A DNA stretch of 64,000 nucleotides from Bdellovibrionales bacterium (GTDB taxonomy: Bacteria; Bdellovibrionota; Bdellovibrionia; Bdellovibrionales; UBA1609), in the NCBI GenBank assembly GCA_027317865.1, contig DAHVQG010000001.1, forward strand, positions 295,925 through 359,924, read 5' to 3'. The notes under the pieces are model-generated. The model was not told where the DNA came from. It made no database searches and saw only the letters and a program-made list of their open reading frames with translations. Both the position numbers and the translations under genes were made by a program. Every line of letters begins with the position of its first letter. The stretch's first letter is position 1. Positions 4,620 through 64,000 of this stretch are shown here, piece by piece.

Positions 4620-4743
4620 GAAATGGGCTCAAAAGTGCTCAACTCGGATAAAATTCGATAAACTCTAGACAACGTGGGTAAGCTCTCGTGGTTATTTGTT
4701 TTTTGCCGCTAACTCAACTACTTATGTTTACTCGCTTCGCCAG

Positions 4744-5787: not shown

Positions 5788-5833
5788 GTCATACTGATCT
5801 CGATATTTTTCGATGATCTGGCGGGTTTTAGAT

Positions 5834-7302: not shown

Positions 7303-7379
7303 AAGGCTCCCCCCTATGCCAAAAAAGTGTAACCTATGTCTCCGGAATAAAGTGTTACCTATGTGTCGGGAAGCTCACA
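6272..7379 (-). mobile_element. IS481-family element, 3'-truncated
   Basis: The intact end reads TGTGAGCTTCCCGACACATAGGTAACAC... on the minus strand, with an internal repeat ACATAGGT(A/T)ACAC. The opposite end is replaced by the IS3 element. Confidence 0.8.
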
Positions 7380-7471
7380 CTACACGAACCAGCAGTATAC
7401 TAATCGGATTTTCGTTGCGTGTAGTTCAGCGAATTTTGACTTAATTTATTCACTAGGTTAGTTGGAAGCAC

Positions 7472-7945: not shown

Positions 7946-7949
7946 CCTC

Positions 7950-8735: not shown

Positions 8736-8773
8736 GTCGACAGTGTAGCTTCTTTAGGCTGGCAACGGTAGTT

Positions 8774-9757
8774 TTATGCCGCCTCAACCAATTTATGGCT
8801 GTAATGCGGGCGCACACGATCACGGAGAATTTCGTAAAGCTCCTCGCGCGATTGACCATTTGGATGAAGCCAACGATCGATATTGTTTGGCTTTAAAAAA
8901 ACGGGGCAACGTTCGTGGCCGGTTTCGGCAATTTCTTTTGGTGGATCATCCGTGATGATCGCGCAAGAATATAAATCAGGTTTGCCTTTTTGCTTATTCA
9001 CATCCCAGATCGTCGGGATGATCATGTAATCGGTATTGTCAGGTTCAAAAGAAAGAATCACACTTTTTCGCTCACGAAGTTCAGGGGCTAGCGAAAACTT
9101 CTCTAAATACTTTTCGGTAGGGACATGTTCATAAAATTTAGATACGATGACGATGCCGTGCTGCGTGCCGAAGACGGGCCGCCAAAATGGGTTCTCGAGA
9201 TTATCGAGACGGGCATTGTAGCAACCGCTAAATTTGCGATCGAAACTTTCGGCTTTGCCGCGCGGGCGCATGTGGTACCGAAATGGGGCCACAATTTTTT
9301 CGCCGGTTTCATCAACTGTAATCATTGAAAGATAACTCAATGGGAAAACGCTTTTTTCATCTTCAGAAATGTAGTCGGACGTATTGAATTTTTTAAGTTT
9401 AAATTTGATTTGGTCAATTTTATTTGTGGCAATTCGTTTTTCTTCAAGCGCTTTCTTCGTCGATTTTGCGCTCAAGCTGCGTTCGGCCAGCGTGAGTCGC
9501 GCTTGTTGTTTGAAAAGCTCTTCTTCAAGGAGGGTAATCTGATCTTTTCGCCATTTCAAAATCATCTCGGCGATATGCTTTTCTTGCGCTGATTTGGGGG
9601 CAACGAGAAACGGGTTCTCCATCGCTTTGTTGATCGTAAGTTTTTCGCCCTTTGCCCGCCGGGTAAAAATGTCCTCGTACATGTCGAGTTGCACACGAAC
9701 GCCGAATTTCATTCCGATTTCTTTTGCGTCTTGTTGGACCATCGCCGAGTAGCACAT
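8774..9757 (-). CDS. SOS response-associated peptidase (SRAP/HMCES family)
   Basis: N-terminal M-C-YSA with catalytic Cys2, YNARLD, FYE, AIITDDPP, GHERCP. Start reassigned to ATG 9757. Confidence 0.88.
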   Translation of the reverse strand: MCYSAMVQQDAKEIGMKFGVRVQLDMYEDIFTRRAKGEKLTINKAMENPFLVAPKSAQEKHIAEMILKWRKDQITLLEEELFKQQARLTLAERSLSAKSTKKALEEKRIATNKIDQIKFKLKKFNTSDYISEDEKSVFPLSYLSMITVDETGEKIVAPFRYHMRPRGKAESFDRKFSGCYNARLDNLENPFWRPVFGTQHGIVIVSKFYEHVPTEKYLEKFSLAPELRERKSVILSFEPDNTDYMIIPTIWDVNKQKGKPDLYSCAIITDDPPKEIAETGHERCPVFLKPNNIDRWLHPNGQSREELYEILRDRVRPHYSHKLVEAA

Positions 9758-10009
9758 GAACGGCATTATAGCGCTCGACGAAGAAATGCACAAATCTTCG
9801 AGCGGGAGGTTTTAAAAGCCATTAGCGTTGTCACACTCCTCCATCATTGTGGCTAGATGGTCTGTATCCATATCTAAACTCAGTTGAAATTTCACCTTGA
9901 TACGCGCGGCAATTTTTAACTCGAATCGACCGGCTCGGTGTCTATTTTTTATTCACTTGGGGGATTTGGACCAAAGTGTTGGCCCCCTAAGGCTGAATAA
10001 TCGGGGGAA

Positions 10010-49437: not shown

Positions 49438-50403
49438 ATGAAGTTTTACTTACGCTATTTCAGTTTGCTTGTCGGAGTTTTAATTGTTGCCTCAACGGCA
49501 TTGGCGCAGACATTTGTCGCGACTGTTGTAGCCGTCAGCGGCGATGTTAAAGTTTTGCATCTCCCCCTGCCTGGCGATCACGGACCGTTTCTGAAAGTGC
49601 ATAACCGAACCTACATTTATCATCAGGCAAAGCTTGGCGCAAAGATTGACCCCGGCGAAATTATAATGAGCGGAACTAACGGAAAAGTTCGACTGGTCTA
49701 TCCGAACGGCGATACTTTTTTTGTTGCTTATGGCAGCTCGTTTGTGTTGCCGGTCGAGCTTAATAAACAGGCTAAAAACAATCGCCATCGCGCCAATTCG
49801 TTGGTCAAAATGTACTACGGTCGTTTTCGCGCTCTTATCTCAAAACTTGGCCCACGCAACCGGTTGCGCGTGGTTACGCCGGATGCTGTCGCCGGCGTGC
49901 GCGGCACTGATTTTTTCGTGCGCTCGAATGCGACGGTTGGAACCCAATTAGTGGTTTTGCGAGGGGCGGTCGCTATGCGATCCAAAATTTCTTCATCACA
50001 TTCAATTTTGGTGAAAACAGGATATTTGGCGCAGGCAAAAAATAAGGCGATAACAGTACCAAAAGTTATCTTAGTCACACGCGAAGGCCTTCAGAAAATT
50101 CGTCAAGAATCGGCACTTAAAGTAAACGCCCGAGAAGTCGCCAAGCTGCCGAAAGTGGAACAAAAAGAGATCCACGAGTTGCAGAAAAAAGCGTTCGAAT
50201 CCGTTATGGTTGATATTCACAGTCACAACCCCGCGCTTTATAAGGAATTAAAGCGGCGCAAAATCAAAAAATTGGATCAGATCAATAATGTGGTTATATC
50301 CCGTCTGTGGAATCATGCGCCAACTGCGAAAAATCAAAAACCGGCTTTAAAAATGCCAAAATCGAATAAGCATTCATATTATCGTCATCCTGTTGTGCAA
50401 TAA
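49438..50403 (+). CDS. FecR-domain exported protein
   Basis: Signal peptide, TPDAVAGVRGTDF, VLRGAV. Confidence 0.85.
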   Translation: MKFYLRYFSLLVGVLIVASTALAQTFVATVVAVSGDVKVLHLPLPGDHGPFLKVHNRTYIYHQAKLGAKIDPGEIIMSGTNGKVRLVYPNGDTFFVAYGSSFVLPVELNKQAKNNRHRANSLVKMYYGRFRALISKLGPRNRLRVVTPDAVAGVRGTDFFVRSNATVGTQLVVLRGAVAMRSKISSSHSILVKTGYLAQAKNKAITVPKVILVTREGLQKIRQESALKVNAREVAKLPKVEQKEIHELQKKAFESVMVDIHSHNPALYKELKRRKIKKLDQINNVVISRLWNHAPTAKNQKPALKMPKSNKHSYYRHPVVQ

Positions 50404-50451
50404 TGTGAAGCTTGTTCGCGTACGTTTAGAAATTTAGCGCCGCCCTTTGAA

Positions 50452-51213
50452 TTAAAACACGTATCCAATGCCCGCTTTCGCGCTAACGATTAGCAAATTG
50501 AAAGAATTTATCGTAGAAGTAACGGCGGATTGATTGCGAACCGAATACGAATATCTTTCACGCTCGGCGCCGGCTTCTCCTAATGCAAAAAACTTCGAAC
50601 TGAATTGATAGGTTAATTGAAATCTCAAAAGGCCGCCGTTCACAGGAGGTGATCCATATATATCCGAAGAATGCATTTGACCGTATAAGAACCCAAGACC
50701 GATCAGCGAAGTTAGCCGATCTGTCAAATCGAACGAGCCGGTCAACTGGAGTGCCAACTTGGTCAATTTGGCTGTTTCAAGTGCTGGTTGCCCAGCCGGA
50801 TCGACCCCCCCAAACGGCCGATTACCCCTGGTGTAAGTAAGTACAACAGCTTCGTGCCAATTGTTGAACCACTTAATATGAAACGAATGCCCGACTCCAA
50901 CTGCAGTTTCGAAGTCCGACCAGGGTACATAAACATGGGCCGGCGATAGTATATTGCCTTGAACAGAATTCAACGAAAGTACGGCGAAATAACTGGGGCT
51001 AAATTGAAATTGTCCGGATAAGTTCTCACCATAGAGGTTTGCAGCGGGTGGGTTTGGGCCATTTGAATTTATTAAAGAAATGTTTACGTTATCAATTTTC
51101 GGACCAAAAAATAGGACCGTCGGACTTTCGTTTGGGGAGCCGTAGGCGCAACTGCACAATAGTAGCCCAGATATCAAAGCGAAAACAAAGTAGTAAAACC
51201 TTTGCGCCGGCAT
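50452..51213 (-). CDS. Putative outer-membrane beta-barrel protein
   Basis: Signal peptide, amphipathic strands, C-terminal AGIGYVF. Confidence 0.7.
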   Translation of the reverse strand: MPAQRFYYFVFALISGLLLCSCAYGSPNESPTVLFFGPKIDNVNISLINSNGPNPPAANLYGENLSGQFQFSPSYFAVLSLNSVQGNILSPAHVYVPWSDFETAVGVGHSFHIKWFNNWHEAVVLTYTRGNRPFGGVDPAGQPALETAKLTKLALQLTGSFDLTDRLTSLIGLGFLYGQMHSSDIYGSPPVNGGLLRFQLTYQFSSKFFALGEAGAERERYSYSVRNQSAVTSTINSFNLLIVSAKAGIGYVF

Positions 51214-51283
51214 TTAACAACTTTGTCACAATTTTTTACTGAAGCAAGTTCATTCATTTATTCCGATTAAAAATCATGCGGCA

Positions 51284-51312
51284 GGCGGCTGTTTCATTTC
51301 GAAACAGCCGCC
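51284..51312 (-). terminator. Hairpin after the Hsp20 genes
   Basis: GGCGGCTGTTTC-ATTTC-GAAACAGCCGCC, a perfect 12-bp stem. Confidence 0.7.
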
Positions 51313-51338
51313 CGATTTGAAGGGGTGGGGCTGTGAGT

Positions 51339-51884
51339 TTATACAGCTTTCGTGTCTTTGATCTCTTTTGGGCCTTCTTTTTTTGATCCCAACAGTTTAC
51401 TAAAAAATCCATCGTGCCCGGTCTGAATCGGAACAGTACGCGCCTTAGCGCTCTCGGCTTTTGGCAAGGCCACGTTCAAAACTCCGTTTTCATAGTGGGC
51501 CTCGATCATATCCGCATTGATCGTCGAGGGGAGTGTAAAAGTGCGTTCAAATTTACCATAACTTCGTTCATGGTGAAGAGTCGCCTCGGCGTCATCGTTT
51601 TTCATTTCATAGCGTCGCTCGCCAGAAATAATGAGCTCGTTGTTTTTAACTTCGATTTTAATGTCTTCTTTTTTGACCCCGGGCGTATCGAAGCTCACCA
51701 AGTAGTGGTCTTTTGTTTCTCGTATGTCACAACTGGGCTGAAAATTGACCGTAGTTGCAACCGTAGGGCGCAAAATGCTGTCTACTACTCGGTCAAAGTC
51801 GTCAAACACATCTTCCATTACGCTGGGAGATAAGCTGCGACCAGACCACATCCATTCTGGTGACATAGAAGTTATCATTCTCAT
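51339..51884 (-). CDS. Small heat-shock protein (Hsp20)
   Basis: PGVKKEDIKI, ERSYGKFERTFTLP, YENGVLNVALPK; AGGAGG RBS. Confidence 0.95.
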   Translation of the reverse strand: MRMITSMSPEWMWSGRSLSPSVMEDVFDDFDRVVDSILRPTVATTVNFQPSCDIRETKDHYLVSFDTPGVKKEDIKIEVKNNELIISGERRYEMKNDDAEATLHHERSYGKFERTFTLPSTINADMIEAHYENGVLNVALPKAESAKARTVPIQTGHDGFFSKLLGSKKEGPKEIKDTKAV

Positions 51885-51962
51885 GGTTACCTCCTTTATT
51901 TAAGTTTGCTGATTTCTCAACATACATCTTTCAATTAAAAACTGTGTTTGGTTGAAGAAATG

Positions 51963-52568
51963 TCAAGCCCTCAACTTCGGGAATCTAAGCACAATTTTAT
52001 TTTTGCCGCGAAGTACTTTCATTTTATTGGCATAAACATCAGCGGGTAGAGGGAATGTTCTGCTGAACATTGACTTAAAAAAACTTTCGCTGGCCACTTT
52101 ATTGTTGTCACGTGAACGGGTCGAGGTTGTCTTCTTTTCTCGCGTGCCCGTAATGGTTATGTATCCGTCTTTAATTTTAGTGTTAATGGCCATAGATTTT
52201 GCGTTGCCGACTTTAATGTCGTAGTAGACATAACGGCGGTCTTCTCTTTTAGAAACTTCATTAATGCCCGCAGTATCAATCTTGTTTGAAAAAATGGGAT
52301 CAAAAGGCACGGTCACCGTGGGCATGCTGTCTTCAAACTCTTTCATGCTTTTGTCCATTTGTTGCTGCATCTTTTCTAAATCAGCGAAGGGTTGATTTTG
52401 GGCAAAAAAATTATCACTAAAAATGGGGGCAACACTCTGTTTTTTGGGGCTTGTGTTTTCGGCCTTCGATCTAAAGCTTGGGCTGACTTTAGTGGCTGCC
52501 AATACGGCGGTCCCGCCTATAATCGCGCTTACAGCGGGAATAACTATGTTTTTTAAATAGGTTTTCAT
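51963..52568 (-). CDS. Hsp20/alpha-crystallin-like protein with N-terminal hydrophobic anchor
   Basis: GYITITG, FSRTFPLP, IVLRFPK; N-terminal TM or signal segment. Confidence 0.75.
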   Translation of the reverse strand: MKTYLKNIVIPAVSAIIGGTAVLAATKVSPSFRSKAENTSPKKQSVAPIFSDNFFAQNQPFADLEKMQQQMDKSMKEFEDSMPTVTVPFDPIFSNKIDTAGINEVSKREDRRYVYYDIKVGNAKSMAINTKIKDGYITITGTREKKTTSTRSRDNNKVASESFFKSMFSRTFPLPADVYANKMKVLRGKNKIVLRFPKLRA

Positions 52569-52985
52569 AATTTCTCCTCCTGTAAATAGACGTTTGCTCC
52601 TCGTGAAAAAAATGTGTTTAGCGTTTTTGGTGTCAAGCTTAAATTTTTGACTGATTTAAAAACATAAATGATATTAATATGTTATGAGATTTCGACCGTA
52701 AATAATTAGTCCGGCTAATAGAGCCATTGCGAATAGAATATCAACAAAAGCTTCAACCGCGTGGGGCAAATGCTGAACAAAACCAACCCGGTAATCAAAT
52801 GCGATCTGTTTATCAATATTAGGATTAGGGACTAGGGATTAGAACGCAGGTCACGTTTAGGACATATACCTGACAAAAAACGAATTTGTCGATTGAACAA
52901 ATTCTACCCTTATATTTGAAATTCAGTTACGTATTAATTGGCGAAAGTCCAAATTACAATCACAAACCAAAGTGCGCAAACAGTT

Positions 52986-54608
52986 ATGATTCAATTTGCA
53001 AAGGTCACAAAAAGTTACGGCGGTAAGACGCTATATCGCGACGGCTCGTTTCAGCTCAACCCAGGTGAAAAAGTGGGATTGGTCGGGCCCAACGGCGCCG
53101 GCAAAACCACGGTGTTTCGTATTCTCGTCGGTGAGACGGGGATGGACTCTGGTAACGTGGTTAAGCCAGACGGCGTCGTTGTCGGTTATTTTTCGCAAAA
53201 CATCGAAGACATGAAAGGGAGGAGCGTACTCGAAGAAGTGAAGTCCGCGGCAGGGCACCTCCCTAAATTGCAGGCGCAGTTGTTGGAACTCGAGCGACGT
53301 CTCGGTGAACCTATGGATGACGATGAAATGGCGAAGGTTCTTGAAATTTACGGCGAACGGCAAGCTGAGTTTGAGCGATTAGGTGGGTATGATCTCGATT
53401 CGCGCGCGGCCGAAATTGTAAGCGGACTTGGGTTTACTATTGAGGACCATAATCGCGACACTTCGACGTTTAGCGGCGGGTGGAAGATGCGCATCGCGCT
53501 TGCCAAAATTTTAATTCTTAACCCTGACGTCTTGTTGATGGATGAGCCGACAAACCATTTGGATCTCGAATCGATCATCTGGCTTGAGGGTTGGTTACGA
53601 CAATTTAAAGGCGCGCTTTTGATGACGAGCCACGATCGAGATTTTATGAATCGCCTAGTGACAAGAATTATCGAAGTAGCGAATCAATCGATTACAATTT
53701 ATAGCGGCAACTACGATTTTTATGAGCGCGAAAAAGAAATTCGTCGCGAGCAGTTGATTGCAGCGGCAAGACGCCAAGACGAAATGCTCGCAAAAGAAGA
53801 AGAGTTCATCGCACGATTTGCGGCAAGAGCTTCGCATGCGGCGCAAGTTCAATCGCGAGTGAAGAAGCTTGAAAAAATCGATCGTATCGAAGTGCCGACT
53901 GAAGAAAAGGCGATACAATTTGTTTGGCCGATACCACCGCGTGGCGGCGACGAAGTGGTAAAATTTGAGAAATTGGGCAAGGTGTGGCCGCGTGAGGGCG
54001 GTGGCGAAGTTCCAGTTTTTCACGGAGCCAGTGCTCTTGTAAAACGACTCGATCGTGTCGCAGTCGTGGGGGTAAACGGTGCGGGCAAATCGACATTGCT
54101 CAAAATCATATCCGGTCAAACCGAACCGACGTCAGGTCGAATCACAGTCGGTGCGGGTATTGAGATCGGGTATTTTAGCCAGAACTCGCTTGATGTTTTG
54201 AATCCGAATTTGACCGTGGTCGATGAAGTGCACGGACGAATCCCCAATGCAAATTTAGGGTACGTGCGAAATCTACTTGGAGCATTCAAGTTTTCAGGTG
54301 ACGAAGTGGAAAAGAAAGTGTCGGTACTTTCGGGTGGGGAAAAAAGTCGCTTGGTTCTTGCGACTATTCTTGCGCGGCCGGTGAATTTGCTTATTCTCGA
54401 CGAACCGACCAACCACCTCGACGTGCAGTCGCGGGATGTTTTGCTCGATGCCGTTTGCCAATTCCCCGGAACTGTAATGATCGTGAGTCACGATCGCCAT
54501 TTCTTGCGTAAGATGAGCACCCGGGTGTTCCGATTAGATCGTCACGAGCTCACGGTTTACGACGGGACATGGGATTACTATTTAGGAAAAACCGGACAGG
54601 CGATATGA
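52986..54608 (+). CDS. ABC-F family ATPase
   Basis: Two NBDs (GPNGAGKT / FSGGW / DEPTNHLD and GVNGAGKS / LSGGE) with no TM domain. Confidence 0.95.
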   Translation: MIQFAKVTKSYGGKTLYRDGSFQLNPGEKVGLVGPNGAGKTTVFRILVGETGMDSGNVVKPDGVVVGYFSQNIEDMKGRSVLEEVKSAAGHLPKLQAQLLELERRLGEPMDDDEMAKVLEIYGERQAEFERLGGYDLDSRAAEIVSGLGFTIEDHNRDTSTFSGGWKMRIALAKILILNPDVLLMDEPTNHLDLESIIWLEGWLRQFKGALLMTSHDRDFMNRLVTRIIEVANQSITIYSGNYDFYEREKEIRREQLIAAARRQDEMLAKEEEFIARFAARASHAAQVQSRVKKLEKIDRIEVPTEEKAIQFVWPIPPRGGDEVVKFEKLGKVWPREGGGEVPVFHGASALVKRLDRVAVVGVNGAGKSTLLKIISGQTEPTSGRITVGAGIEIGYFSQNSLDVLNPNLTVVDEVHGRIPNANLGYVRNLLGAFKFSGDEVEKKVSVLSGGEKSRLVLATILARPVNLLILDEPTNHLDVQSRDVLLDAVCQFPGTVMIVSHDRHFLRKMSTRVFRLDRHELTVYDGTWDYYLGKTGQAI

Positions 54609-54625
54609 GCCGGTGCAATGGCCTT

Positions 54626-55219
54626 CTAATGAAACTTTTCGCCCTTCGCCATCATTTGCAAAATCGTTCTCATACGCTTTTCGCGTGTCTCAGGCGTCTT
54701 TGCCGTCTGAAGTCGATAAGCTATCGAATAGAGATTTGTTTTGTTTAGCGAATTAAAAAATGCCTCGGCTTTTTTGTTCCGTTTAAGGGCCTTAAGAAAG
54801 TCTTTGGGGATGCTCGCAGTGCTTTGAGAGTCATAGGCCGCCTTCCATCGTCCGTCTTTTTTGGCGGCTTCGATCTGCGCGAGTCCCGCTTTCTTCATTT
54901 TTCCAGCTCGCATGAGTCGCTCCGCGTGCTCCGTATTCCTTTTCGACCAGCCACTTCGGCGGCGTCGGGGGGTAAACCTTTGCAACCATGAGTTCTCGTT
55001 ATAACTGCGCTTCTGTCCGTCGATCCAACCGTGGCAAAGTGCAACGTCGAGGGCTTCAGCGTAAGTTAGCGATTTTTTAGCGGAAACCTTTTTTTGTAAT
55101 AGCAACCACGCTCCACTCGATCGCGCATGGTTCAAGCGCAGCCATGCTTGCCACGCTTCTACTGACTGAGCGCAGAGGACATCTTTTTCGCTCAATTTTT
55201 TTTTGATTCGAACACCCAT
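54626..55219 (-). CDS. YdeI/OmpD-associated family protein
   Basis: ALCHGWIDG, FTPRR..SGWS, AKKDGRW, AKTPETREKR. Confidence 0.92.
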   Translation of the reverse strand: MGVRIKKKLSEKDVLCAQSVEAWQAWLRLNHARSSGAWLLLQKKVSAKKSLTYAEALDVALCHGWIDGQKRSYNENSWLQRFTPRRRRSGWSKRNTEHAERLMRAGKMKKAGLAQIEAAKKDGRWKAAYDSQSTASIPKDFLKALKRNKKAEAFFNSLNKTNLYSIAYRLQTAKTPETREKRMRTILQMMAKGEKFH

Positions 55220-55322
55220 TAGGTTAACATCCTAATTGATTGTTATACTTGTGTAAATGAGTTGAGTACCTGCCGTGAAGGGGTTGGGCGGCAAATAATT
55301 TTGAGGTGAAAGAGCAAGTACG

Positions 55323-55796
55323 GTGATGAAATTAAGACCTAACGAAAAAAGATATTGGGAAGCTTATGTAAAAACATTAAGTCGAGACGCAAGACCCAAA
55401 AGCCCAAATGTGGTGGCTGAGTTTGCCGGCAGCAGAGAAATTACGGATGATCTCATAGCCCTCTATTTATCCGGTAAAAAAACTGCAGGCAGTAGTATTG
55501 AAGAAGATTTCATTTCAGCCGGCGATGATCCTCCTAAAATTGGGAATTTCTGGATTGTGCTTAACAGTACAGAGACTCCAAGCTGTATCTTAAAAACAGA
55601 AAAAATTGTCAGACATAAATTTAGGGATGTCCCTGTTGGGATCGCTATGGCTGAGGGTGAAGGCGATTTAACGCTTGAATATTGGCGACGCGTTCACAAA
55701 GAATTTTATTCGCCATATCTAAAGAAGTGGGGCCTCGAATCTATTGAAGACGCGACCGTCATCACCGAGTTTTTCACTTTAGTTTATGCCGAGTAA
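55323..55796 (+). CDS. ASCH-domain protein
   Basis: GKKTAGS, AEGEGDLTLEYWRRVH. Confidence 0.9.
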   Translation: MMKLRPNEKRYWEAYVKTLSRDARPKSPNVVAEFAGSREITDDLIALYLSGKKTAGSSIEEDFISAGDDPPKIGNFWIVLNSTETPSCILKTEKIVRHKFRDVPVGIAMAEGEGDLTLEYWRRVHKEFYSPYLKKWGLESIEDATVITEFFTLVYAE

Positions 55797-55949
55797 TTAA
55801 CGTCGCCTAAGTCGATTCTGTCCGATTTTCATGGTTATGAGTTTCTACCGTTCGACTGCCGGAAGTATTGCTGTTCGTCCTTGCTCCTTTCGTTTCGTTC
55901 GAAGGTTTGGTTTTTGCAAAAACCTTCTCACCTCACAAAAGGAGCAAAA

Positions 55950-56276
55950 ATGAAAAAGTTTCGAACATTAGAGCTGGCAATTGAGTTCTACCAAAAGGCT
56001 GACGATCTTAGCCTCACAGGCAATTTAAGAGATCAACCGTTGCGGGCCAGTTCATCGATTTCGCTCAATTTATCTGAAGGTAACGCCAAGCGAACTGAAA
56101 AAGAAAAGAAGCGCTACTATCACACGGCGTACGCTTCGTGCCAGGAGTGTAAGACCATTCTGCGACTTGCAAAGGTTAGTGAAGGCGAAATTTTAAATGT
56201 GGCGGATAATCTCGGCGCGCGGTTGTATAAGCTGCTGCAGTCGAATATTCAAAAATCGAAGTTGGGCGATACTTGA
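55950..56276 (+). CDS. Four-helix bundle (23S rRNA IVP-like) protein
   Basis: LRDQ..RASSSISLNLSEG, AYASCQEC; AAGGAG RBS. Confidence 0.85.
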   Translation: MKKFRTLELAIEFYQKADDLSLTGNLRDQPLRASSSISLNLSEGNAKRTEKEKKRYYHTAYASCQECKTILRLAKVSEGEILNVADNLGARLYKLLQSNIQKSKLGDT

Positions 56277-56358
56277 TATCGGGTATACCGGTCGCCAGGT
56301 ATACTTGATATCCGGTAAGTAAAAACCTGGCGTCCCATCGGGACCGATATCCGAACTC

Positions 56359-56829
56359 TTGTATCCTATTGATTTTTGGCCATATTATTTTAAAAGCCGG
56401 TCTCGAATTTCGCCAAATGACACCAAAATCATCGTTGAAATGTACCAAAAAGGTTGTTCGCTTACCGACGTTGCAAAGCTTGTTCATCGCTCAAAAGACA
56501 AAGTTCGGCGTGAGCTTTTGCGAAATGGGATCACGCCGCGCAGTCGACTCGCTCAAGCAACACACGTTCGTTCGCTCGAATCGGGTAAACAGTTTGCTCG
56601 CCCGTGTTACGGTTTCTGCTACTTCGAAGGCAAGGTCGTAAAAGATCCAAAAGAGTATCCGACTTTAAAGTTCATTCATCATCACTGGGTGAATGGCAAA
56701 ACGATCCATGGGATTTGTTGTGAACTCAATCGAGCCAAAATTGAGTCGCGCTTGGGCACCAAGTGGAGTTGGGCAGCAGTCAAAAAAATAGTGGATCGAT
56801 TTAAAAATAAAACAGTCGCTTTACCGTAA
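56359..56829 (+). CDS. HTH plus serine-recombinase 'Recombinase' DNA-binding domain protein (no catalytic domain)
   Basis: YGFCYFEGKVVKDPKE...ICCELN...RLGTKWSWAAVKKI. Start is uncertain. Confidence 0.6.
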   Translation: MYPIDFWPYYFKSRSRISPNDTKIIVEMYQKGCSLTDVAKLVHRSKDKVRRELLRNGITPRSRLAQATHVRSLESGKQFARPCYGFCYFEGKVVKDPKEYPTLKFIHHHWVNGKTIHGICCELNRAKIESRLGTKWSWAAVKKIVDRFKNKTVALP

Positions 56830-56841
56830 AGGAGAAAACAA

Positions 56842-57010
56842 ATGTATTTAGACAAAATAATCGAATGGATTATTGGCATCGTGCTGATCTTTGCGGTGAC
56901 GGGGCACTTGGGTGCTGCAACGGTGGATTTGGATCGAACAAGCCAAAGTCATCCATGCATCACGCACGTCAACATGGGGCGATCCGGATTTCATAAGGTT
57001 GCGCAAGTGA
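56842..57010 (+). pseudogene. Small membrane protein, probably frameshifted
   Basis: AAGGAG RBS and a TM segment MYLDKIIEWIIGIVLIFAVTGHLG; a more protein-like continuation LQRWIWIEQAKVIHASRTSTWG..* lies in another frame. Confidence 0.4.
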
Positions 57011-57254
57011 TCCGTAAGTCATTAGCTCGCAAATTTTGTCGAACAACTTCTGTCACTCCGACGGCAAGATCGCAAAGGATCCAAATGAGTATCCGACTTT
57101 AAAGCTCACCCATAATATGTTGTAAATAGGCCGTGTTTAAAGTTTAGACATTTTTTGTGCAAATGTTGTATTTATTTTTGGTTGAGCAATTATATACTGG
57201 AGTTTGCACAGAACTTATTATAAACAGGTGGCAACTCAATGCTTGGAGGACAAA

Positions 57255-57566
57255 ATGAAAAATGCGATGTTTGCGGCGTTACCGTTTTTACTACTTGGCG
57301 CTCTAGGCGCGTCTGCTCAGCAGGTTCGCCCGTCAGATGAGGCTACCAGTGTAAATCGTCAAAACGAAACCCGATTTGTCAGTTTATCAAAGCTAATGGC
57401 GATGAAAGTACTTGTTTGGGATCAACAAAATTCTCAGTGGTATCTTGATACGAGTGCTTTGAGAGAAAAAAACATCAAGCAGCAAAAAACCATTTTTGAC
57501 AACAGTGAAGTATTCGATGAGTTTTCGGGCAATAAAGGTACCAAGGGCACAGGCGGCAACTGGTAA
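57255..57566 (+). CDS. Signal-peptide-bearing 103-aa protein, candidate RiPP precursor
   Basis: GGAGG RBS, Sec signal ending ASA, C-terminal tail FSGNKGTKGTGGNW; 3 nt upstream of YcaO. Confidence 0.7.
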   Translation: MKNAMFAALPFLLLGALGASAQQVRPSDEATSVNRQNETRFVSLSKLMAMKVLVWDQQNSQWYLDTSALREKNIKQQKTIFDNSEVFDEFSGNKGTKGTGGNW

Positions 57567-57569
57567 ACC

Positions 57570-58523
57570 TTGGGCGAGCACTCGCTTCTTCGCTTTTTAA
57601 ATAAGGACTGCGGCCCAATCGTCCGGCTGCGAACGTATGGATACCCAGAGGACGTTTCGCCATATTTTTGGTATTCGCTTGCGGATCTATCCGACGAAAT
57701 AACTGGCGGATATCGATCAGGCGACGTTCTGAGCTTTTGTGGAGCGGGTTGGGCAGCTAGCCGGTTATTGTCGCAAGAAAAGGCCATCGTAGAGGCGATT
57801 GAACGATGGGCATTCAGGTATTACTCTGTACACGATTCGGGCAGCGCTTGTCTGGATTTGGACTCTACCTCGAATGGATTTGCCGCTTTGCCCGCGAGTT
57901 TCGGTCCGCTTAAAGTCCATATAAGTTCCGTTTGCGAGGCTATTGAGCGTTATGTGTTAAATCAAATTTGGATGGGTAAGGACGTCTATCTTGAAGATTG
58001 TACAACTTATTTAAGCCCTAATGTACTGCGGTTGTTCGGCCAAAGCGACGGGTCACTAAGGCTATTTAAAGCAGTTTTGTCACTAAATGACAGTGGCAAG
58101 ATAAGTCAAATCACGGGAGCCACAGATCTGAAATTTGTTATTGCGCTATTCGATCGTTCAACCGGAGGTGTCCTTCCGGGCTCGGCCTGTGGAGAGGATA
58201 TCAGTTCTGTCGCCGAGCGCGCCGGACTGGAGGCCTTTAACCATCTTGTAGCGATCAAAAATATCGAGAATGGTTATGCTCAGCCGAGCGAAACAATAAC
58301 TGACCGTCGGCTCGTGTATTTTGGGACAAGCAAATCAGCAGCAAACATGGTTTGGTCCGTAATAAATTCTTGTGCTGCAGGCTCTAGACAAATTGTTGAA
58401 CCTGATTTGATATTTATGGATAATCTTCCTGGGCCGTGGGAACCAGAGGTACATGTAGCTAGGGCTGTGGTTGATCAGTCCCCGCCTATTACGGAGGGCG
58501 ATGAGACGCGCTTTTTGATTTGA
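57570..58523 (+). CDS. Compact YcaO-like protein
   Basis: KAIVEAIERW, STSNGFAA and VCEAIERY match the YcaO ATP/Mg-binding motifs. Confidence 0.8.
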   Translation: MGEHSLLRFLNKDCGPIVRLRTYGYPEDVSPYFWYSLADLSDEITGGYRSGDVLSFCGAGWAASRLLSQEKAIVEAIERWAFRYYSVHDSGSACLDLDSTSNGFAALPASFGPLKVHISSVCEAIERYVLNQIWMGKDVYLEDCTTYLSPNVLRLFGQSDGSLRLFKAVLSLNDSGKISQITGATDLKFVIALFDRSTGGVLPGSACGEDISSVAERAGLEAFNHLVAIKNIENGYAQPSETITDRRLVYFGTSKSAANMVWSVINSCAAGSRQIVEPDLIFMDNLPGPWEPEVHVARAVVDQSPPITEGDETRFLI

Positions 58524-58524
58524 G

Positions 58525-60057
58525 ATGAAGCGACTGCTTGTCATTTTACTTCTACTATTCTCCCAAGGGGCATTAGCCGTGAAACCTAAATTTTTTAAGT
58601 ACTGGTTTTGGTGGCCAATCGACACCTACGATAATTATCAATCCGACACTCCACCGGTTATGCAGCTAGATCGGAACATCTACGCCACTCTGGTGTCTGA
58701 ATATATTGACGGCAAGGTGGAGGGCATCTTGGCAAAGAAGTGGGTCATCAGCACCGACGGTCGCACGTGGACATTTTATCTGCGTACAGACTTGAAATTT
58801 GATGATGGTACGCCAATTACCCCTGCAATCGTTTTGTTAAACTTCAAAAGAATTCTTTGGTTAACTAGAAAAAGCGGCTTAGTGCTCAATTCATTATTGC
58901 CCGAGGTTTCTAGCTGGAAAAACATGAATTCGAAAAGCAATGTTATTTTTCTGAAAAACGATTCGCAACTTGTGTTTAAATTCTCTCGCCGACCAATTGG
59001 CCTATTCTCGCAACTTGGACAACCAATTTACAGCGTAGTTAGTCCGAAATGTTTTAGCAGAAATGGCCGTTGGCGTACTCCGTATTGTGCCATTGCTTCA
59101 GGGCAGTACTCGGTAATTGGGCGAGGTAAAAATTTTATAGATTTAAAATCCCGCGGGATCTTTAAGACGGTTAAGAACTCGCCGAAATTTGTTCGTATCG
59201 AGTGGCCGGTTAGAAGTGGGGACTCTGTGGTGAAGGCTATCGGCGATGGAAGGGCTGATCTCACGGTCGAGCATAGCTTTGGATTAAGCAAAAAAACTTT
59301 GGTGACCTTGAGAAAAGAGTCTGTGCGAACAATTTATGAGCCACCTGTACGAATGCATTTTGTTGACCTGAATGCAAAACGTTTTCCCTTCAATAACAAG
59401 ACCCTTCGGCAAAAATTTCGTGATCTTTTTCTTTATAAGCTAAGCCATGATCGGGACTTTTTGTCGTCAGGAATAAAAGTGAATGACTCTTTTATTCCGA
59501 GAGGAGGGGTTGGTTATGAATATTTTCCGATTCCGCACATTAAAGTAAAGGAAAAAAGCAGAGTGATAGGGACTGCTGAAGTACTTTTGTATCCTCTATC
59601 AGCTGATCCCAAAATTCAGCACGCTATTGATAATTGTGTTATTGAAACGCTTCGCGAGCTTGGGATCGAACCTAAAATCCGAAGGTATACCGACCGGTTT
59701 GTTCCGTTTAATAAGATGCGTAGAGGCAAATTCGACGTGATGGTCCGAGGCACCGGTATTTTAGTCAACAACCCTTACGGCGATTTGAGGATGATGTTTA
59801 TGAGCAAAATCGGCGCTAATATCCCAGACCCTTCAGGTCAAATACCAGACTTGATAAGAAAGGCTGAAGTTGAGCAAAACGGCCGCAAGAGGGCGGGTCT
59901 TGTTAAAAAGATCAATCAAATAATGTTCAACGATGCAAGCATAATCACTTTTGCCCATTCGTCGCTAGTTTACCTTTATCGTGGCAAGGTTAATTTTAGA
60001 CATTATAATCTTTTTGAAGATCCCATCGAGTTTCGTGCTATCGGCTGGCAAAAGTGA
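58525..60057 (+). CDS. Family-5 (OppA/DppA-like) solute-binding protein, stand-alone
   Basis: Signal peptide, IYATLV..GILAKKWVISTDGRTWTFYLRTDLKFDDGTPIT, ASGQY, PFNNKTLRQ. Confidence 0.85.
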   Translation: MKRLLVILLLLFSQGALAVKPKFFKYWFWWPIDTYDNYQSDTPPVMQLDRNIYATLVSEYIDGKVEGILAKKWVISTDGRTWTFYLRTDLKFDDGTPITPAIVLLNFKRILWLTRKSGLVLNSLLPEVSSWKNMNSKSNVIFLKNDSQLVFKFSRRPIGLFSQLGQPIYSVVSPKCFSRNGRWRTPYCAIASGQYSVIGRGKNFIDLKSRGIFKTVKNSPKFVRIEWPVRSGDSVVKAIGDGRADLTVEHSFGLSKKTLVTLRKESVRTIYEPPVRMHFVDLNAKRFPFNNKTLRQKFRDLFLYKLSHDRDFLSSGIKVNDSFIPRGGVGYEYFPIPHIKVKEKSRVIGTAEVLLYPLSADPKIQHAIDNCVIETLRELGIEPKIRRYTDRFVPFNKMRRGKFDVMVRGTGILVNNPYGDLRMMFMSKIGANIPDPSGQIPDLIRKAEVEQNGRKRAGLVKKINQIMFNDASIITFAHSSLVYLYRGKVNFRHYNLFEDPIEFRAIGWQK

Positions 60058-61352
60058 TGGTCCGAAAAGCCAGTCTTCTGTCGCTTGCCGTGATTCTGGT
60101 GTTTATCGGTATTGTTGGCATTGGAGAGCATTATCTTTGGCATGCGATGATCAATTATCATTTCAAGCAGCTCAGCAGACAGGTCCAGACTATTTTGTAC
60201 AACGAGATATCGCAGGGAAATCTATTCGAAATTAGTGCTGATCTCGACAAACTGCGTATGTCAGGGCTAGTGGAAAACGTCGCGCTCACTCAGATGTCGG
60301 CAACTGCAAATTGGCTGTACGTTTCTAATTCAAAAATTGTGCGACTGGTGGACGGACGCAAGGCTGCAATCCGTCGTTGTTCAACTGGTAGAGTTGAGAT
60401 GAATTTCACTAACAATGACACCGCGCTGGTTACTTTTTTAATTGGTTCAAAGGGACTTGGTGAAAATGCTTGTATTGTCGTTCAGTCAAAGATTCCAGGC
60501 GAACTTACCGGACTTAGAGATAAAGTGAATTTCGTTATTATCCTGATTGTATCGCTTTCGATTGTGTTATTTGTCCTTGCAATTATCCGTATGACTCACG
60601 ATCAATTTCGCTACGAAAAAATTGCGAATGAAAAATTAAAAGAAACTGCAGAAAAGTTAAATGCCTTTGCACAGCAGGTATCGCATGACATTCGATCGCC
60701 GCTGTCAGCGCTTAATACAGTAATCGGAACGCTCGATTTGACTACCATTTCTCAAGACAAGCAAAACCTAGTCAAAAACGCCACGAAAAGAATTAATGAT
60801 ATTGCAAGCGACTTATTAAACCAGGGTAGGCGAATGTTGAACGAAAATACGAAATCAGTCGTTGATGATGCTGCAATTTCTGAACCTGGGGCTGTCGATC
60901 TTCTGCCTTGCATATATGAAATTGTGAGCGAAAAGAAAGCTCAACTTAGACCGAACATTACGCTGAAATCAGAAATCGCGCCAAACTGCCATGACGTAAA
61001 GGTTGCATTAGACCGATCAGTCTTACTAAGAGTATTTTCAAATCTAATCAATAATTCGATCGAAGCCATTCCGGCTGCCGGCAGCATCACGATTTACGCA
61101 AGAAAACAAAATGGTCTCGTCTCTATTTCAATTTCGGACACAGGCGTTGGGATCCCTCAGAAGATAATTGACGCCGTCGGTACTGTTGGTGTTTCGCACG
61201 GCAAAACAGGCGGTGCAAGTGGGTTTGGGCTTGGACTTTCGTTCGCAAAGCAAGCAATTGGAGCCGCGAGCGGTAGAATAACAATTCAGTCTCGGGTTGG
61301 AACGGGCACAATTGTTAACATCGTTTTACCTATAGCAGACCAGCAAACGTAA
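60054..61352 (+). CDS. Membrane sensor histidine kinase
   Basis: Two TMs around a periplasmic domain, QVSHDIRSPL, NLINNSIEA, DTGVGI, GFGLGL. Confidence 0.92.
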   Translation: MMVRKASLLSLAVILVFIGIVGIGEHYLWHAMINYHFKQLSRQVQTILYNEISQGNLFEISADLDKLRMSGLVENVALTQMSATANWLYVSNSKIVRLVDGRKAAIRRCSTGRVEMNFTNNDTALVTFLIGSKGLGENACIVVQSKIPGELTGLRDKVNFVIILIVSLSIVLFVLAIIRMTHDQFRYEKIANEKLKETAEKLNAFAQQVSHDIRSPLSALNTVIGTLDLTTISQDKQNLVKNATKRINDIASDLLNQGRRMLNENTKSVVDDAAISEPGAVDLLPCIYEIVSEKKAQLRPNITLKSEIAPNCHDVKVALDRSVLLRVFSNLINNSIEAIPAAGSITIYARKQNGLVSISISDTGVGIPQKIIDAVGTVGVSHGKTGGASGFGLGLSFAKQAIGAASGRITIQSRVGTGTIVNIVLPIADQQT

Positions 61353-61403
61353 GTTCGGATATTGGTCCGAGTGGCGTCCCCAGGTCGCTGCATTTCTAAT
61401 AAT

Positions 61404-61537
61404 TTGTTCCCGTGAAGCGGCCGAGTTAAACTCATGAAAGCAATTATATTTTCCGTCACGGCAAGATTGTTCCCGCATGTTAATATGGATTGTTCCCGCG
61501 TGTTGCCAGCACGAATTGTTCCCGGTTTTTGTTCCCG
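61404..61537 (+). repeat. Five direct copies of TTGTTCCCG
   Basis: Copies start at 61404, 61467, 61490, 61516 and 61529 in an intergenic region. Confidence 0.85.
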
Positions 61538-61561
61538 CAAATAACGAAAGAGGTGAATTAT

Positions 61562-61747
61562 ATGGAAAGATTAATCGAAGCTCTCGTCACACTTGCAGTC
61601 GCCTCTCTTGTTTTAGCAGGTGGCCACTATACGCTTGAACATATTGAAATAAACGTCAAGCGTATGGCACTTCAAAAGGCCGCAACACCGATGAATAGCC
61701 TTGAACATGCCGCTCAAATTATGACCGGGAGCAAGCTCGACTATTAA
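61562..61747 (+). CDS. Small membrane-anchored hypothetical protein
   Basis: GAGGTG RBS; N-terminal hydrophobic helix. Confidence 0.55.
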   Translation: MERLIEALVTLAVASLVLAGGHYTLEHIEINVKRMALQKAATPMNSLEHAAQIMTGSKLDY

Positions 61748-61811
61748 AAAATAAATTGGATGGTCCATAGGTTGGTAAAAAAGGCATCTTAACTAAGCGA
61801 GAAAAATAACC

Positions 61812-62174
61812 ATGGGCATTTTTAAAGAATTACGAATCGAAGAAGATGAGAAACTAATTAACGAGATCCGAGCCTTTCGCGCGGTTCTCGTGATCTTTGA
61901 ATCAGACGACAATCTTAAGCTAAAAGCATTACCGTTTATAAATTTTGAAAAGCAAACGATCGACTGGGACTCGATGGAGAAGAACAATACCTTTAGCGCG
62001 AATCAATGGGCCGCAGTCTTTTGGGCTAAAGCCATTTGGCATAATTATGCCTTAACAGTTCGCGATCCGTTCGATGCCGCTCACGAGATGAGACAATCAA
62101 CACAAAACGCCGTACTTAGGGCGCTCGCCATTCGGTGGGGGCTATATGAAAACTATTTTCGCGAGGCGGTCTAA
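61812..62174 (+). CDS. Hypothetical protein
   Basis: 120-aa ORF co-oriented with and upstream of the resolvase. Confidence 0.6.
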   Translation: MGIFKELRIEEDEKLINEIRAFRAVLVIFESDDNLKLKALPFINFEKQTIDWDSMEKNNTFSANQWAAVFWAKAIWHNYALTVRDPFDAAHEMRQSTQNAVLRALAIRWGLYENYFREAV

Positions 62175-62248
62175 ATGAGCGACTACAAAGACGATTCAAT
62201 GGATTTGAAAGACGGCATGAAAACCGATAAGATAAGGGCTGGTCGTAA

Positions 62249-62938
62249 ATGAGTAACCGAAAGGTTTGTCTTTACGCGAGAGTGAGTACCGATCAGCAGT
62301 CCACCGGACTTGAGGCTCAGATAAGAGCCCTGAAGGAGTATTGCAGACTGAACAACATTACCGACTACGAGCTATTTACCGACGAGGGCATTAGCGGCAC
62401 GAAAAATAGCCGCCCAGCCCTTGACCGGATGATGGCTGAGGTGCGAACGGGCAATGTTGAGACAGTCGTTGTTTATTCATTCTCAAGGTTTGCAAGAAGC
62501 ACAACACACCTTCTTGCCGGTCTTGAAAATATGAAGAAAAACAACACGAACTTCTCGTCCTTGACTGAACGAATCGATACGAACTCGCCCATTGGAAAAG
62601 CCGTGTTTGTGATTATTTCGGCAATCGCACAGTTAGAGCGCGATTTGATAGCCGAGAGAGTTCGTAACGGACTTGCCAATGCTCGCGCGAAGGGCAAATT
62701 GATAGGGAGAAAGAAGCTAAGAGATTCTGATTTAATAAGAAAGCTTCTAAAAAGTGGATTAAGCTACCGTGCTTGCGCAGTCATTGCCAAATGTTCGCAC
62801 GGAAGTATCCACCAGGAGAAGCTCGCTATGAAGCGTGACGAAGCGAAAGCAAAAGAACTCGCCGAACAGCAAGCTGCCGAAGCCCAAAGATTAAATCAAG
62901 CCCTCGAAGCGACGCAGTTTCCGGCACCGGCTGTGTAA
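62249..62938 (+). CDS. Serine recombinase (resolvase/invertase family)
   Basis: YARVSTDQQ, DEGISG, RPAL, SRFARS, AQLERDLIAER, GKLIGR. Confidence 0.93.
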   Translation: MSNRKVCLYARVSTDQQSTGLEAQIRALKEYCRLNNITDYELFTDEGISGTKNSRPALDRMMAEVRTGNVETVVVYSFSRFARSTTHLLAGLENMKKNNTNFSSLTERIDTNSPIGKAVFVIISAIAQLERDLIAERVRNGLANARAKGKLIGRKKLRDSDLIRKLLKSGLSYRACAVIAKCSHGSIHQEKLAMKRDEAKAKELAEQQAAEAQRLNQALEATQFPAPAV

Positions 62939-62950
62939 GAGAGCAAAAAT

Positions 62951-63202
62951 ATGAACTTCAAAAAAACTAAATATTTTGAAGAGCAGATTTTGCGAAAGCG
63001 TCCATATTTGAAAGAAGCTTGGATAATGAGTGTTTTGTCTCGACCAGCAAAAATTGAACCCCAAGATGACGGTCGCATTCGCCACTGGGGATTTGTTCAA
63101 GAAATTGGAAAGTATCTCAGAGTGGTGACTCTTGAAGATGGCGAAACGGTTCATAATGCTTTTCCCGATAGGGATTTTGATTCCTCAGGAGGTAAAAAAT
63201 GA
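62951..63202 (+). CDS. Putative toxin (DUF4258/BrnT-like)
   Basis: DGRIRHWG..YLRVVTLEDGETVHNAFPDR; overlaps the DUF2283 gene. Confidence 0.65.
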   Translation: MNFKKTKYFEEQILRKRPYLKEAWIMSVLSRPAKIEPQDDGRIRHWGFVQEIGKYLRVVTLEDGETVHNAFPDRDFDSSGGKK

Positions 63203-63414
63203 AGCTTCATTATTATGGCGACACAGATTCTCTCTATATAGAGCTTAGCGAAAAACCAAGTCACGAATCTAAAGAAGTGGCAAAGGGCTTAGTTGTAGAT
63301 TTTGATTCTGACGGGAAAGTGGTCGGCTTTGATATCGATCATGCATCAAAAAATCTCGATCTTGATAAACTTGAGACGGTTTCATTACCCACTAAATCAA
63401 CTAAACTTGGATGA
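63199..63414 (+). CDS. DUF2283-domain protein (putative antitoxin)
   Basis: YYGDTDSLYIEL, VVDFDSDGKVVGFDI. Confidence 0.85.
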   Translation: MKLHYYGDTDSLYIELSEKPSHESKEVAKGLVVDFDSDGKVVGFDIDHASKNLDLDKLETVSLPTKSTKLG

Positions 63415-63419
63415 ATAAA

Positions 63420-63533
63420 AAAAAGACCTTCGGAATGAAGCCGGTGGATCTGTCGCGTGTGCGGTCGATTCTGGAAGAAAACGAAAAACTGATTGAGGAG
63501 AAATGGAATGAGTTCAACAGCAGAAAAAAATGA
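63420..63533 (+). pseudogene. C-terminal remnant of a DUF4160-family gene
   Basis: Reads KKTFGMKPVDLSRVRSILEENEKLIEEKWNEF..*; lacks the N-terminal H.P.H.H half and overlaps the DUF2442 start. Confidence 0.55.
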
Positions 63534-63771
63534 GTATGATTTTAGGTTGATTAACGTCGAAGTCACGGACACTCAGTTGTGCGTGACCTTGGCCGATGGC
63601 CGCGAAGTGCATAATCCGCTGGAATTTTACCCTAAACTTGTCAAAGCAAGCAAAAAGGTCCGAAATAACTTTCGAATTTTGGCCCAGGGAATTGGTATTG
63701 AGTGGCCAGACTTAAATGAGCACTTATCCACTGAAGGTATAGTGCTCGGGCGACGTGCAATCGATTGGTAA
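63508..63771 (+). CDS. DUF2442-domain protein
   Basis: LADGREV..PLEFYPKL..AS, GIEWPDLNEHLSTEG; GAGGAG RBS. Confidence 0.88.
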   Translation: MSSTAEKNEYDFRLINVEVTDTQLCVTLADGREVHNPLEFYPKLVKASKKVRNNFRILAQGIGIEWPDLNEHLSTEGIVLGRRAIDW

Positions 63772-64000
63772 GCGTATAAAGAGCGAAGATGTGGGGTCTC
63801 AACTGAGGCCCCATTTTTTGTGCGCGTTTGTGGTCAACATACCTGGATTCTATTCACACCGCTACAGATTGCGAGCGTTAAATTCATTCAAATATATAAA
63901 ACTTAAAAGCCTGCGAACAATTTTTCACAGGCAGCCATGGAATTTAGTGGTTTTGATAACACACCTGCCAAACAAATTTTGATTTTCCTAAACGATTTAA

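Follow-up and report, generated by a model that had tools for sequence, protein, structure and literature searches.

A compact YcaO protein encoded with a small exported protein, an orphan binding protein and a sensor kinase: a candidate peptide-signalling cassette in Bdellovibrionales

Enzyme-modified ribosomal peptides are the signalling currency of Gram-positive bacteria, as in the agr (AgrD/B/C/A) and ComQXPA quorum-sensing systems, whereas bacteria with two membranes are believed to use small molecules for the most part. Sensor kinases which depend on a binding protein are also known, such as those of the LuxP-LuxQ, TorT-TorS and ChvE-VirA pairs. The present study concerns a 64,000-nucleotide stretch of a Bdellovibrionales genome (assembly GCA_027317865.1, contig DAHVQG010000001.1, positions 295,925 to 359,924), hereafter referred to as the window, in which four consecutive genes of the plus strand (57255-61352) encode a small exported protein, a compact YcaO-domain protein, a transporter-less solute-binding protein and a sensor histidine kinase. 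We consider, with a probability of roughly one half, that this cassette is one subtype of a widespread and undescribed module that couples a minimal YcaO, lacking any partner, to a sensing pair. As a gene set the module is real and undescribed, and the way in which it would function is proposed below in conditional terms. The preliminary description of these genes, made from the letters alone, knew of no described system with this architecture, and among openly searchable full-text papers none was found that connects YcaO proteins in this way with kinases or binding proteins, with autoinducers or with Bdellovibrio.

Described systems closest to the cassette

Stand-alone YcaOs, among them BotC/BotCD of bottromycin biosynthesis, the E. 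coli YcaO and the methanogen YcaO thioamidating McrA (PDB 6cib, 6peu), resemble the product of the second gene (gene 2) in several respects. Gene 2 shares with this group a YcaO fold that extends along its entire length (Z 14-18) and the ATP/Mg motifs, and has no fused or adjacent E1-like partner. They differ from it in that gene 2 encodes about 300 residues, against 360-750 for the solved chains matched, and that its genome has no TfuA; moreover, the candidate substrate of gene 2 carries a Sec signal, and its gene is set among binding-protein and kinase genes. The azoline cyclodehydratases McbD (6gos) and LynD (4v1u) are the best structural matches of gene 2, and the invariant Thr of its candidate substrate could likewise be cyclised. 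However, gene 2 is accompanied neither by an McbB/E1-like or RRE (recognition element of peptides made by the ribosome and modified after translation, RiPPs) partner nor by a dehydrogenase, and its candidate substrate has a single conserved hydroxyl residue, probably in place of a core rich in Cys, Ser and Thr.

With regard to sensing, the LuxP-LuxQ, TorT-TorS and ChvE-VirA systems share with the cassette a transporter-less periplasmic binding protein encoded next to a kinase with a small periplasmic domain, the two genes overlapping in the present case. They differ from the cassette in that its binding protein belongs to family 5 (peptide/nickel type) and its presumed ligand would be encoded and modified by the same operon. 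The agr and ComQXPA loci also gather the genes of a precursor, a modifying enzyme and a sensor kinase, but none of their parts is homologous to those of the cassette, in which export would rely on Sec and not on the modifying enzyme, a binding protein is added as a putative co-receptor and no linked regulator is found in the window. The hosts of the cassette are moreover diderm, with an outer membrane to cross for cell-to-cell signalling. Finally, Sec signals are reported as highly unusual in RiPP precursors and as experimentally shown only for bufferins in PMC12452194. In bufferins and oxazolins, as presented there, the precursor is RiPP-like and a Sec signal peptide takes the place of a leader, which is the point of resemblance with the cassette. 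The cassette differs from them by its enzyme, a YcaO instead of an MNIO/DUF2063 pair, by the absence of Cys motifs and by the linked sensing pair; MNIO and DUF2063 domains were found neither in the four gene products nor in the cassette neighbours scanned.

Conservation of the gene set and identity of its products

The four genes are co-oriented and tightly spaced, as first noticed in the preliminary description, the listing of open reading frames (ORFs) confirming gaps of 3 nt and 1 nt at the first two junctions and an overlap of 4 nt (GTGA) at the third, and they are translationally coupled. Gene 1 (57255..57566, 103 residues) is preceded by a GGAGG ribosome-binding site read from the sequence (57245..57249), and since this site lies 5 nt before its ATG, this start is favoured over the longer TTG start at 57204. 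It is followed by gene 2 (57570..58523, 317 residues, TTG start), gene 3 (58525..60057, 510 residues) and gene 4 (60054..61352, 432 residues), all on the plus strand.

The same association of genes was retrieved in other genomes. In the close loci, defined as distinct loci with a profile E-value below 1e-100 and at least 800 nt of downstream sequence, the YcaO gene is followed by a binding-protein gene in 16/16 cases, and then by a kinase gene in all of the 13 loci reaching far enough. In public genomes and metagenomes, this close subfamily comprises one Bdellovibrionales metagenome-assembled genome (MAG; locus L016), seven loci of named Elusimicrobia MAGs and metagenome loci. Within the order to which the window belongs, seven distant loci hold YcaO-like, binding-protein and kinase genes together, in variable orders. 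At the scale of the phylum, a mini-YcaO was found in 53 of the 401 genomes sampled (45 of the 337 of high quality), with an adjacent binding-protein gene in 27/29 of the loci retrieved and a kinase gene within 1.5 kb in 18/29; when the flanks are extended to 5 kb, 18 of 20 loci contain a kinase gene, and the dominant order is binding protein, YcaO, kinase. A chance adjacency of the cassette genes was considered and is ruled out by the conserved arrangement in other loci and phyla. In the neighbourhood survey, one of the checks put forward in the preliminary description, the gene set and a small ORF with a signal peptide and a conserved tail motif are thus shared across phyla; the strand of the peptide gene and the gene order vary.

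Judged from its predicted structure and its motifs, the product of gene 2 is a genuine YcaO of compact size. Its AlphaFold model, computed from a 23-row alignment, has a predicted local distance difference test (pLDDT) of 92.8, and its significant Foldseek matches are all YcaO structures, with a probability of 1.00. With VIA-align, the 14 best entries are also all YcaOs (Z 11.9-20.3) and span residues 3-317, against a Z of 6.1 for the best non-YcaO entry; McbD reaches a Z of 20.3 (272/317 residues, root-mean-square deviation 3.3), LynD 19.7, the M. kandleri YcaO 18.0 and the E. coli YcaO 14.8. An hhalign alignment with the E. coli YcaO (locus L055) places SNG (101-103) onto the E. coli SNG, E123/E126/R127 onto E199/E202/R203 and R217/E221 onto R286/E290, and the N-terminal E75-x-x-E78-R79 mirrors by eye the E75-x-x-E78-R79 of the E. 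coli protein. These motif residues (ExxER twice, RxxxE), presumably the ATP/Mg ligands, are invariant or nearly so across 23 family members. Two publications indicate that three ATP-binding motifs are present in all YcaOs (PMC8120280) and that E202A served as an ATP-site variant of the E. coli enzyme (PMC13063428). The protein has no hydrophobic segment and is thus cytoplasmic.

At the sequence level, gene 2 gave no meaningful match with PDB sequences and scored only 13.6 bits with the SagD-type hidden Markov model (HMM) TIGR03604, for a cut-off of 219.25. Among 13 cassette YcaO homologues, eight pass the cut-off of the Pfam YcaO family PF02624 (26.2-34.8 bits), three fall below it and two have no match. 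A search of 5.8 billion clusters yielded 23 proteins of 281-342 residues, 12 of which, including that of the window, have a precomputed PF02624 match. At E-value limits of 1e-3, 1e-10 and 1e-30, an exhaustive profile search retrieved 749, 529 and 34 representatives, respectively, and almost all of those listed measure about 280-320 residues.

The product of gene 1, candidate substrate of the YcaO and candidate ligand of the sensing pair, belongs to no Pfam or NCBIfam family. Its first 21 residues are signal-peptide-like, with an n-region, a hydrophobic stretch and an A-S-A site, after which a Sec signal would be cleaved. It contains no Cys and its C-terminus reads GNKGTKGTGGNW. The preliminary description had emphasised both a Sec signal and a short Gly-rich tail; the signal-like N-terminus stands on reading of the sequence, while the Gly-rich stretch is not conserved, the conserved elements being T-x-F-D and a distal Asn. 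In gene 1 this unit runs from T79-I-F-D82 to N102-W103 (57489..57563, plus strand), and the hydroxyl residues of the tail are the invariant T79 plus S84, S91, T96 and T99, with neither Cys nor His. The Bdellovibrionales locus L016 encodes a collinear 97-residue homologue upstream of its YcaO gene, with 32% identity to gene 1, and the two proteins have QKT-x-FD and a C-terminal GNW in common.

In 16/16 close loci, the YcaO gene has beside it a small ORF that combines a signal-like N-terminus with T-x-F-D. These ORFs of 47-59 codons have a Lys-rich start and a hydrophobic stretch of about 15 residues, after which comes the motif T-x-F-D-x-x-G-[V/L/M]. Of the 19 tails listed, which include that of a chance ORF, 18 have T at position 0, all have the F and 18 have the D. 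Among the 22 ORFs listed, including one in L024 that is probably due to chance, a [P/G/S]-Asn is located exactly 21 positions after the Thr in 16, the stretch in between being variable; an Asn at +21 after T or D was seen by eye in two further ORFs, and the spacing is 20, 22 or 23 in the remaining ones, the last value being that of the window. From 1 to 13 residues follow the distal Asn, and five peptides end in N-W.

Gene 3 encodes a periplasmic solute-binding protein of family 5 (OppA/NikA-type; SBP_bac_5, 1.2e-24), whose signal peptide ends in G-A-L-A without a lipobox, indicating that it is not a lipoprotein. Its best NCBIfam matches are NikA (9e-20; 70.6 for a cut-off of 393) and CntA (1.7e-10; 40.1 for a cut-off of 800). 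It had been described as an OppA-like protein standing alone, which holds at a larger scale, as no BPD_transp_1 permease was found on the whole 360-kb contig (C11) bearing the cassette; a function within an Opp/Dpp importer was therefore rejected. The ten BPD_transp_1 matches of the genome are located on contigs C3, C37, C38 and C42, and the ABC ATPase encoded nearby (52938-54608; two ABC_tran and ABC_tran_Xtn domains) has no adjoining permease. The genome holds six family-5 binding proteins, three canonical (276-309 bits), two of which adjoin permease genes, and three divergent (59-81 bits). With 38-58% identity to 12 cassette orthologues, the binding protein is the most conserved of the cassette set, with a mean column identity of 58% vs 47% for the YcaO. 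As in LuxPQ and TorTS, an orphan periplasmic binding protein is thus encoded next to a kinase. A prediction of the complex between gene 3 (residues 19-510, 13-row alignment) and mature gene 1 (residues 22-103) gave a score of 0.01, with an alignment of 2 rows for the latter, and speaks neither for nor against binding.

The assignment of gene 4 to a periplasm-sensing kinase was also borne out, with two hydrophobic segments flanking a periplasmic domain of about 125 residues, followed by HisKA (His211 in SHDIR) and HATPase_c domains recognised by Pfam. The N-terminal 180 residues are predicted as a transmembrane helix, an alpha/beta domain and a second transmembrane helix (pLDDT 77.7). The sensor domain, which has two conserved Cys and no clear structural relative, is tentatively PAS-like according to this model, its best Foldseek match (E 2.8e-3) being to PAS-like periplasmic or extracellular sensor domains. 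The protein stops 5 residues past the ATPase domain, giving 432 residues vs 523-758 in its relatives, whose C-terminal extension is read as receiver-like (Pfam: weakly, in L021 at E 8e-4). In runs X3 and X4, contigs read across the stop codon of gene 4, and in run X5 a contig matches as far as 61381; the short form of gene 4 is thus not an assembly artefact.

Cassette subtypes and genomic surroundings

Other versions of the cassette encode peptides of different types. In the subtype where the binding-protein gene comes first, a secreted protein of 113-139 residues ends in G-[T/S]-Q-D-[Y/F/V/I] and has in common with gene 1, by eye, a W-Y/V-x-[I/L/D] motif; with this ending, a hydroxyl residue in the conserved tail recurs in a second subtype. 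In a third one, a 51-codon ORF for a Cys-containing peptide lies between the YcaO and binding-protein genes. The genome of the window carries all three subtypes, on contigs C11 (window), C22 (L014) and C39 (L106). The L014 cassette (G000:C22:289970-302287, about 2295-6495, minus strand) comprises in order a YcaO-like gene (351 residues; Pfam 34.0 bits), a peptide ORF, a binding-protein gene, a kinase gene and a sigma-54 regulator gene, the peptide ORF (5271-5489) being of about 50 codons with a signal peptide and a Gly/Ser/Cys tail. A gene for a 1337-residue RHS-repeat protein adjoins this cassette. The L106 cassette (G000:C39:162000-174256, 4182-9954) comprises a sigma-54 regulator, a 138-residue secreted protein, a divergent family-5 binding protein, a 282-residue YcaO-like protein with a weak match (profile E 5.9e-8) and a kinase. 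More generally, sigma-54 response regulators adjoin the cassettes L009, L010, L014, L021 and L023, as well as L106, where this was read from the sequence. To this set the window adds a Cys-free T-x-F-D...N subtype that occurs both in Elusimicrobia and in a MAG of the Bdellovibrionales, the constant spacing of 21 residues, the occurrence of three subtypes in one genome and a kinase without a C-terminal extension.

Two more distant arrangements were encountered. In Opitutus-type MAGs (L028, 3229-8696, and L026), a mini-YcaO gene is divergent from that of a 1251-residue hybrid kinase with a Y_Y_Y domain, and the neighbourhood also holds a LuxR-type regulator. The closest relative in the phylum sample (L057, E 4e-65) has no binding-protein or kinase gene downstream, but upstream of it there is still a short ORF which bears a T-E-L-D-R-R-G-L motif and ends in RW.

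The cassette is bordered on the left by an HTH_38/Recombinase-like ORF (56359..56829, plus strand) belonging to a sequence repeated in genomes of the same genus. Two of these genomes (G006 and G004) contain several matches, of 66-75% at the DNA level, to the region 56202-56893, which resembles a mobile gene present in repeated copies. On the right lies the gene of a serine recombinase of the resolvase type (62249..62938, plus strand; Resolvase match 4.4e-44), matched at 78% by DNA from the end of a G006 contig. No match to the cassette DNA was found in three genomes of the same genus, though its flanks match there, and no close match to its proteins in six. The G+C content across the cassette region, 0.42-0.49, is unremarkable. 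Small accessory genes lie on both sides (54626-56276 and 63199-63771), encoding an OmdA/YdeI-like protein, an ASCH protein, a 23S rRNA intervening-sequence protein and a DUF2283 and DUF2442 pair, and they are of kinds typical of variable islands. Downstream of the resolvase gene, the region of small DUF2283-type genes is structurally variable, contigs of runs X1 and X3 joining position 62922 to 63422 via 216 other letters. In run X5, from another study, the contigs match up to 61381 and continue with an unlike sequence, resembling by eye a tRNA T-arm; as this contig diverges past 61381, the right flank of the cassette varies between populations. A tRNA scan of 50000-64000 detected none. A GC-rich hairpin (57572-57587) and a T-rich run directly follow the stop codon of gene 1 and overlap the start of gene 2; in the scan for promoters and terminators the counts did not exceed those of shuffled sequences, and this hairpin was not significant.

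Candidate mechanism, competing explanations and implications

The mechanism that we propose starts from the gene identities, the fold and motifs of the YcaO, the absence of a transporter and the conservation of both the gene set and the peptide motif. We infer from there every binding and chemical step, as well as the direction of signalling. The product of gene 1 would be translated with its Sec signal peptide and, prior to export, the cytoplasmic mini-YcaO would activate, at the expense of ATP, a backbone amide within the C-terminal unit T79-x-F-D...N102. The chemistry could be the formation of a methyloxazoline at the Thr, suggested by the invariance of this residue, or an Asn-assisted cyclisation or cleavage, a speculation motivated by the fixed-distance Asn which precedes a variable extension and partly by the presence among the structural matches of a YcaO reported to have an ATP-dependent peptidase activity (7u58). 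The product would then be exported and its signal peptide removed, and the orphan binding protein would take the modified tail in the periplasm and dock on the PAS-like sensor domain of the kinase, by analogy with LuxP on LuxQ. Gene 4 would autophosphorylate at His211 and signal to a regulator encoded elsewhere. Several points speak against the term autoinducer used in the preliminary description, namely that Sec ends in the periplasm, that no outer-membrane exporter is conserved, that gene 4 has no extension and that no response regulator is adjacent. Given the first two of these points, we regard a loop confined to the periplasm as at least as likely as quorum sensing, and lean towards it.

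Several observations weigh against a cassette operating as a YcaO-dependent sensing module. The YcaO check called for by the preliminary description succeeded for the fold and the motifs but not for the Pfam profile, gene 2 scoring below the cut-off of PF02624/IPR003776 (E 0.0056; 16.5 vs 25.7 bits), and the mini-YcaO family profile found nothing among PDB sequences. No RRE, E1-like/Ocin-ThiF or dehydrogenase partner was detected in the four genes or in the neighbours of 13 loci, and TfuA (PF07812) has no match in the 99.2%-complete genome, so that the recognition of a substrate by gene 2 is left unexplained; thioamidation would nonetheless be possible, as a TfuA-independent form of it exists (PMC13063428). 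The spacing between T79 and N102 is 23 vs mostly 21 in relatives, and about half of the Elusimicrobia peptide ORFs are on the strand opposite to the YcaO gene. Gene 4 does not have the C-terminal extension of 90-330 residues present in 8/8 compared homologues, and no response regulator is located beside it. Matches to a sigma-54-type promoter amount to 43 in the window vs 33.8 expected, none being upstream of gene 1, and none was found upstream of 23 peptide or small-protein genes at a threshold (GG/GC fixed, at least 9 of 11) whose strictness makes this a weak negative. No outer-membrane exporter is conserved in the cassette neighbourhoods scanned. The Opitutus-type loci have no binding-protein gene, the kinase gene being adjacent in L026 and L028, where no peptide ORF was recognised by eye, and the YcaO-kinase link thus persists without a binding protein. 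Lastly, a related peptide ORF is present at L049, where neither of the two partner genes, for the binding protein and the kinase, lies within 2.7 kb, and the YcaO of L057 (G357:C164, 238-1176), possibly a decayed or repurposed copy, has lost the ExxER catalytic glutamates.

These points have to be considered along with other explanations of the gene set. The binding protein and the kinase could sense an external ligand, for instance a foreign peptide or a metal chelate, the products of gene 1 and of the YcaO then being a co-regulated product or accessory, such as a protective, metal-binding or antimicrobial periplasmic RiPP that is not itself the ligand. Many biosynthetic clusters have regulatory genes beside them, the peptide genes are often divergently transcribed, and the best curated matches of gene 3 are nickel or metallophore binders, NikA and CntA, but with scores far under their cut-offs. 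Sec-exported RiPPs with a periplasmic protective role do exist, bufferins being described as such in PMC12452194; in contrast to such a product, gene 1 has no Cys and its tail no His, and the neighbourhoods scanned show no further conserved genes for biosynthesis, immunity or export. The wedging of the binding-protein gene between those of the YcaO and the kinase, with 1-nt and 4-nt junctions, also argues against this explanation, and the rank of the binding protein as the most conserved member fits a dedicated partner; we regard it as unlikely. The mini-YcaO might otherwise act on a signalling protein, either the binding protein before its export or the cytoplasmic part of the kinase, or as an ATP-dependent regulator of the latter, leaving to gene 1 an accessory periplasmic role. 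Methanogen YcaOs act on the protein McrA, the YcaO gene overlaps the kinase gene in the commonest gene order, and the Opitutus-type loci L026 and L028 with their kinase-adjacent mini-YcaO fit this possibility, as does the thioamidation of the ribosomal protein uL16 by the E. coli YcaO, reported in PMC13063428. The presence of a small signal-peptide ORF with a conserved tail in 16/16 close loci and in two further subtypes, and the shift of the peptide class along with the YcaO subtype, nevertheless make this explanation quite improbable.

The cassette of the window could also be a passenger of a mobile element, no longer signalling after the loss of the output part of its kinase. The resolvase and recombinase-like genes on its flanks, its absence from the same-genus genomes compared, the shortness of gene 4 relative to 8/8 homologues and the lack of a response regulator beside it are all compatible with such a decay. 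However, the four ORFs are intact, the catalytic residues of the YcaO and the H-box of the kinase are present, the same end of gene 4 is found in X3 and X4 contigs and lies within the stretch matched in X5, kinases without a receiver domain are the norm, and the sigma-54 regulators of the two other cassettes of the genome might be shared, which renders this last explanation very improbable. Returning to a partner-less YcaO wired to a sensing pair, its most complete formulation would make the mini-YcaO cassettes a new class of RiPP-based signalling in diderms, where a backbone modification made by the YcaO in a fixed 22-residue unit (invariant Thr...Asn) of a Sec-exported peptide or protein is read, in the periplasm or from cell to cell, by a dedicated peptide-binding co-receptor and kinase; we put this forward as a tentative and rather doubtful proposal.

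If it were true, the combination of a backbone-modifying YcaO, a Sec-exported substrate and a receptor made of a binding protein and a kinase would provide double-membraned bacteria with a self-made peptide signal, and would extend the Sec-dependent RiPP precursors beyond bufferins. It would also give a role to a large clade of YcaOs of about 300 residues (749 cluster representatives), partly missed by current HMM cut-offs. The invariant Thr and the fixed-distance Asn designate precise sites at which the chemistry is testable, and an Asn-assisted cyclisation or cleavage could represent a new one. Under the same condition, the three cassettes of differing peptide type in a genome of 2.65 Mb would amount to a private, multi-channel peptide language.

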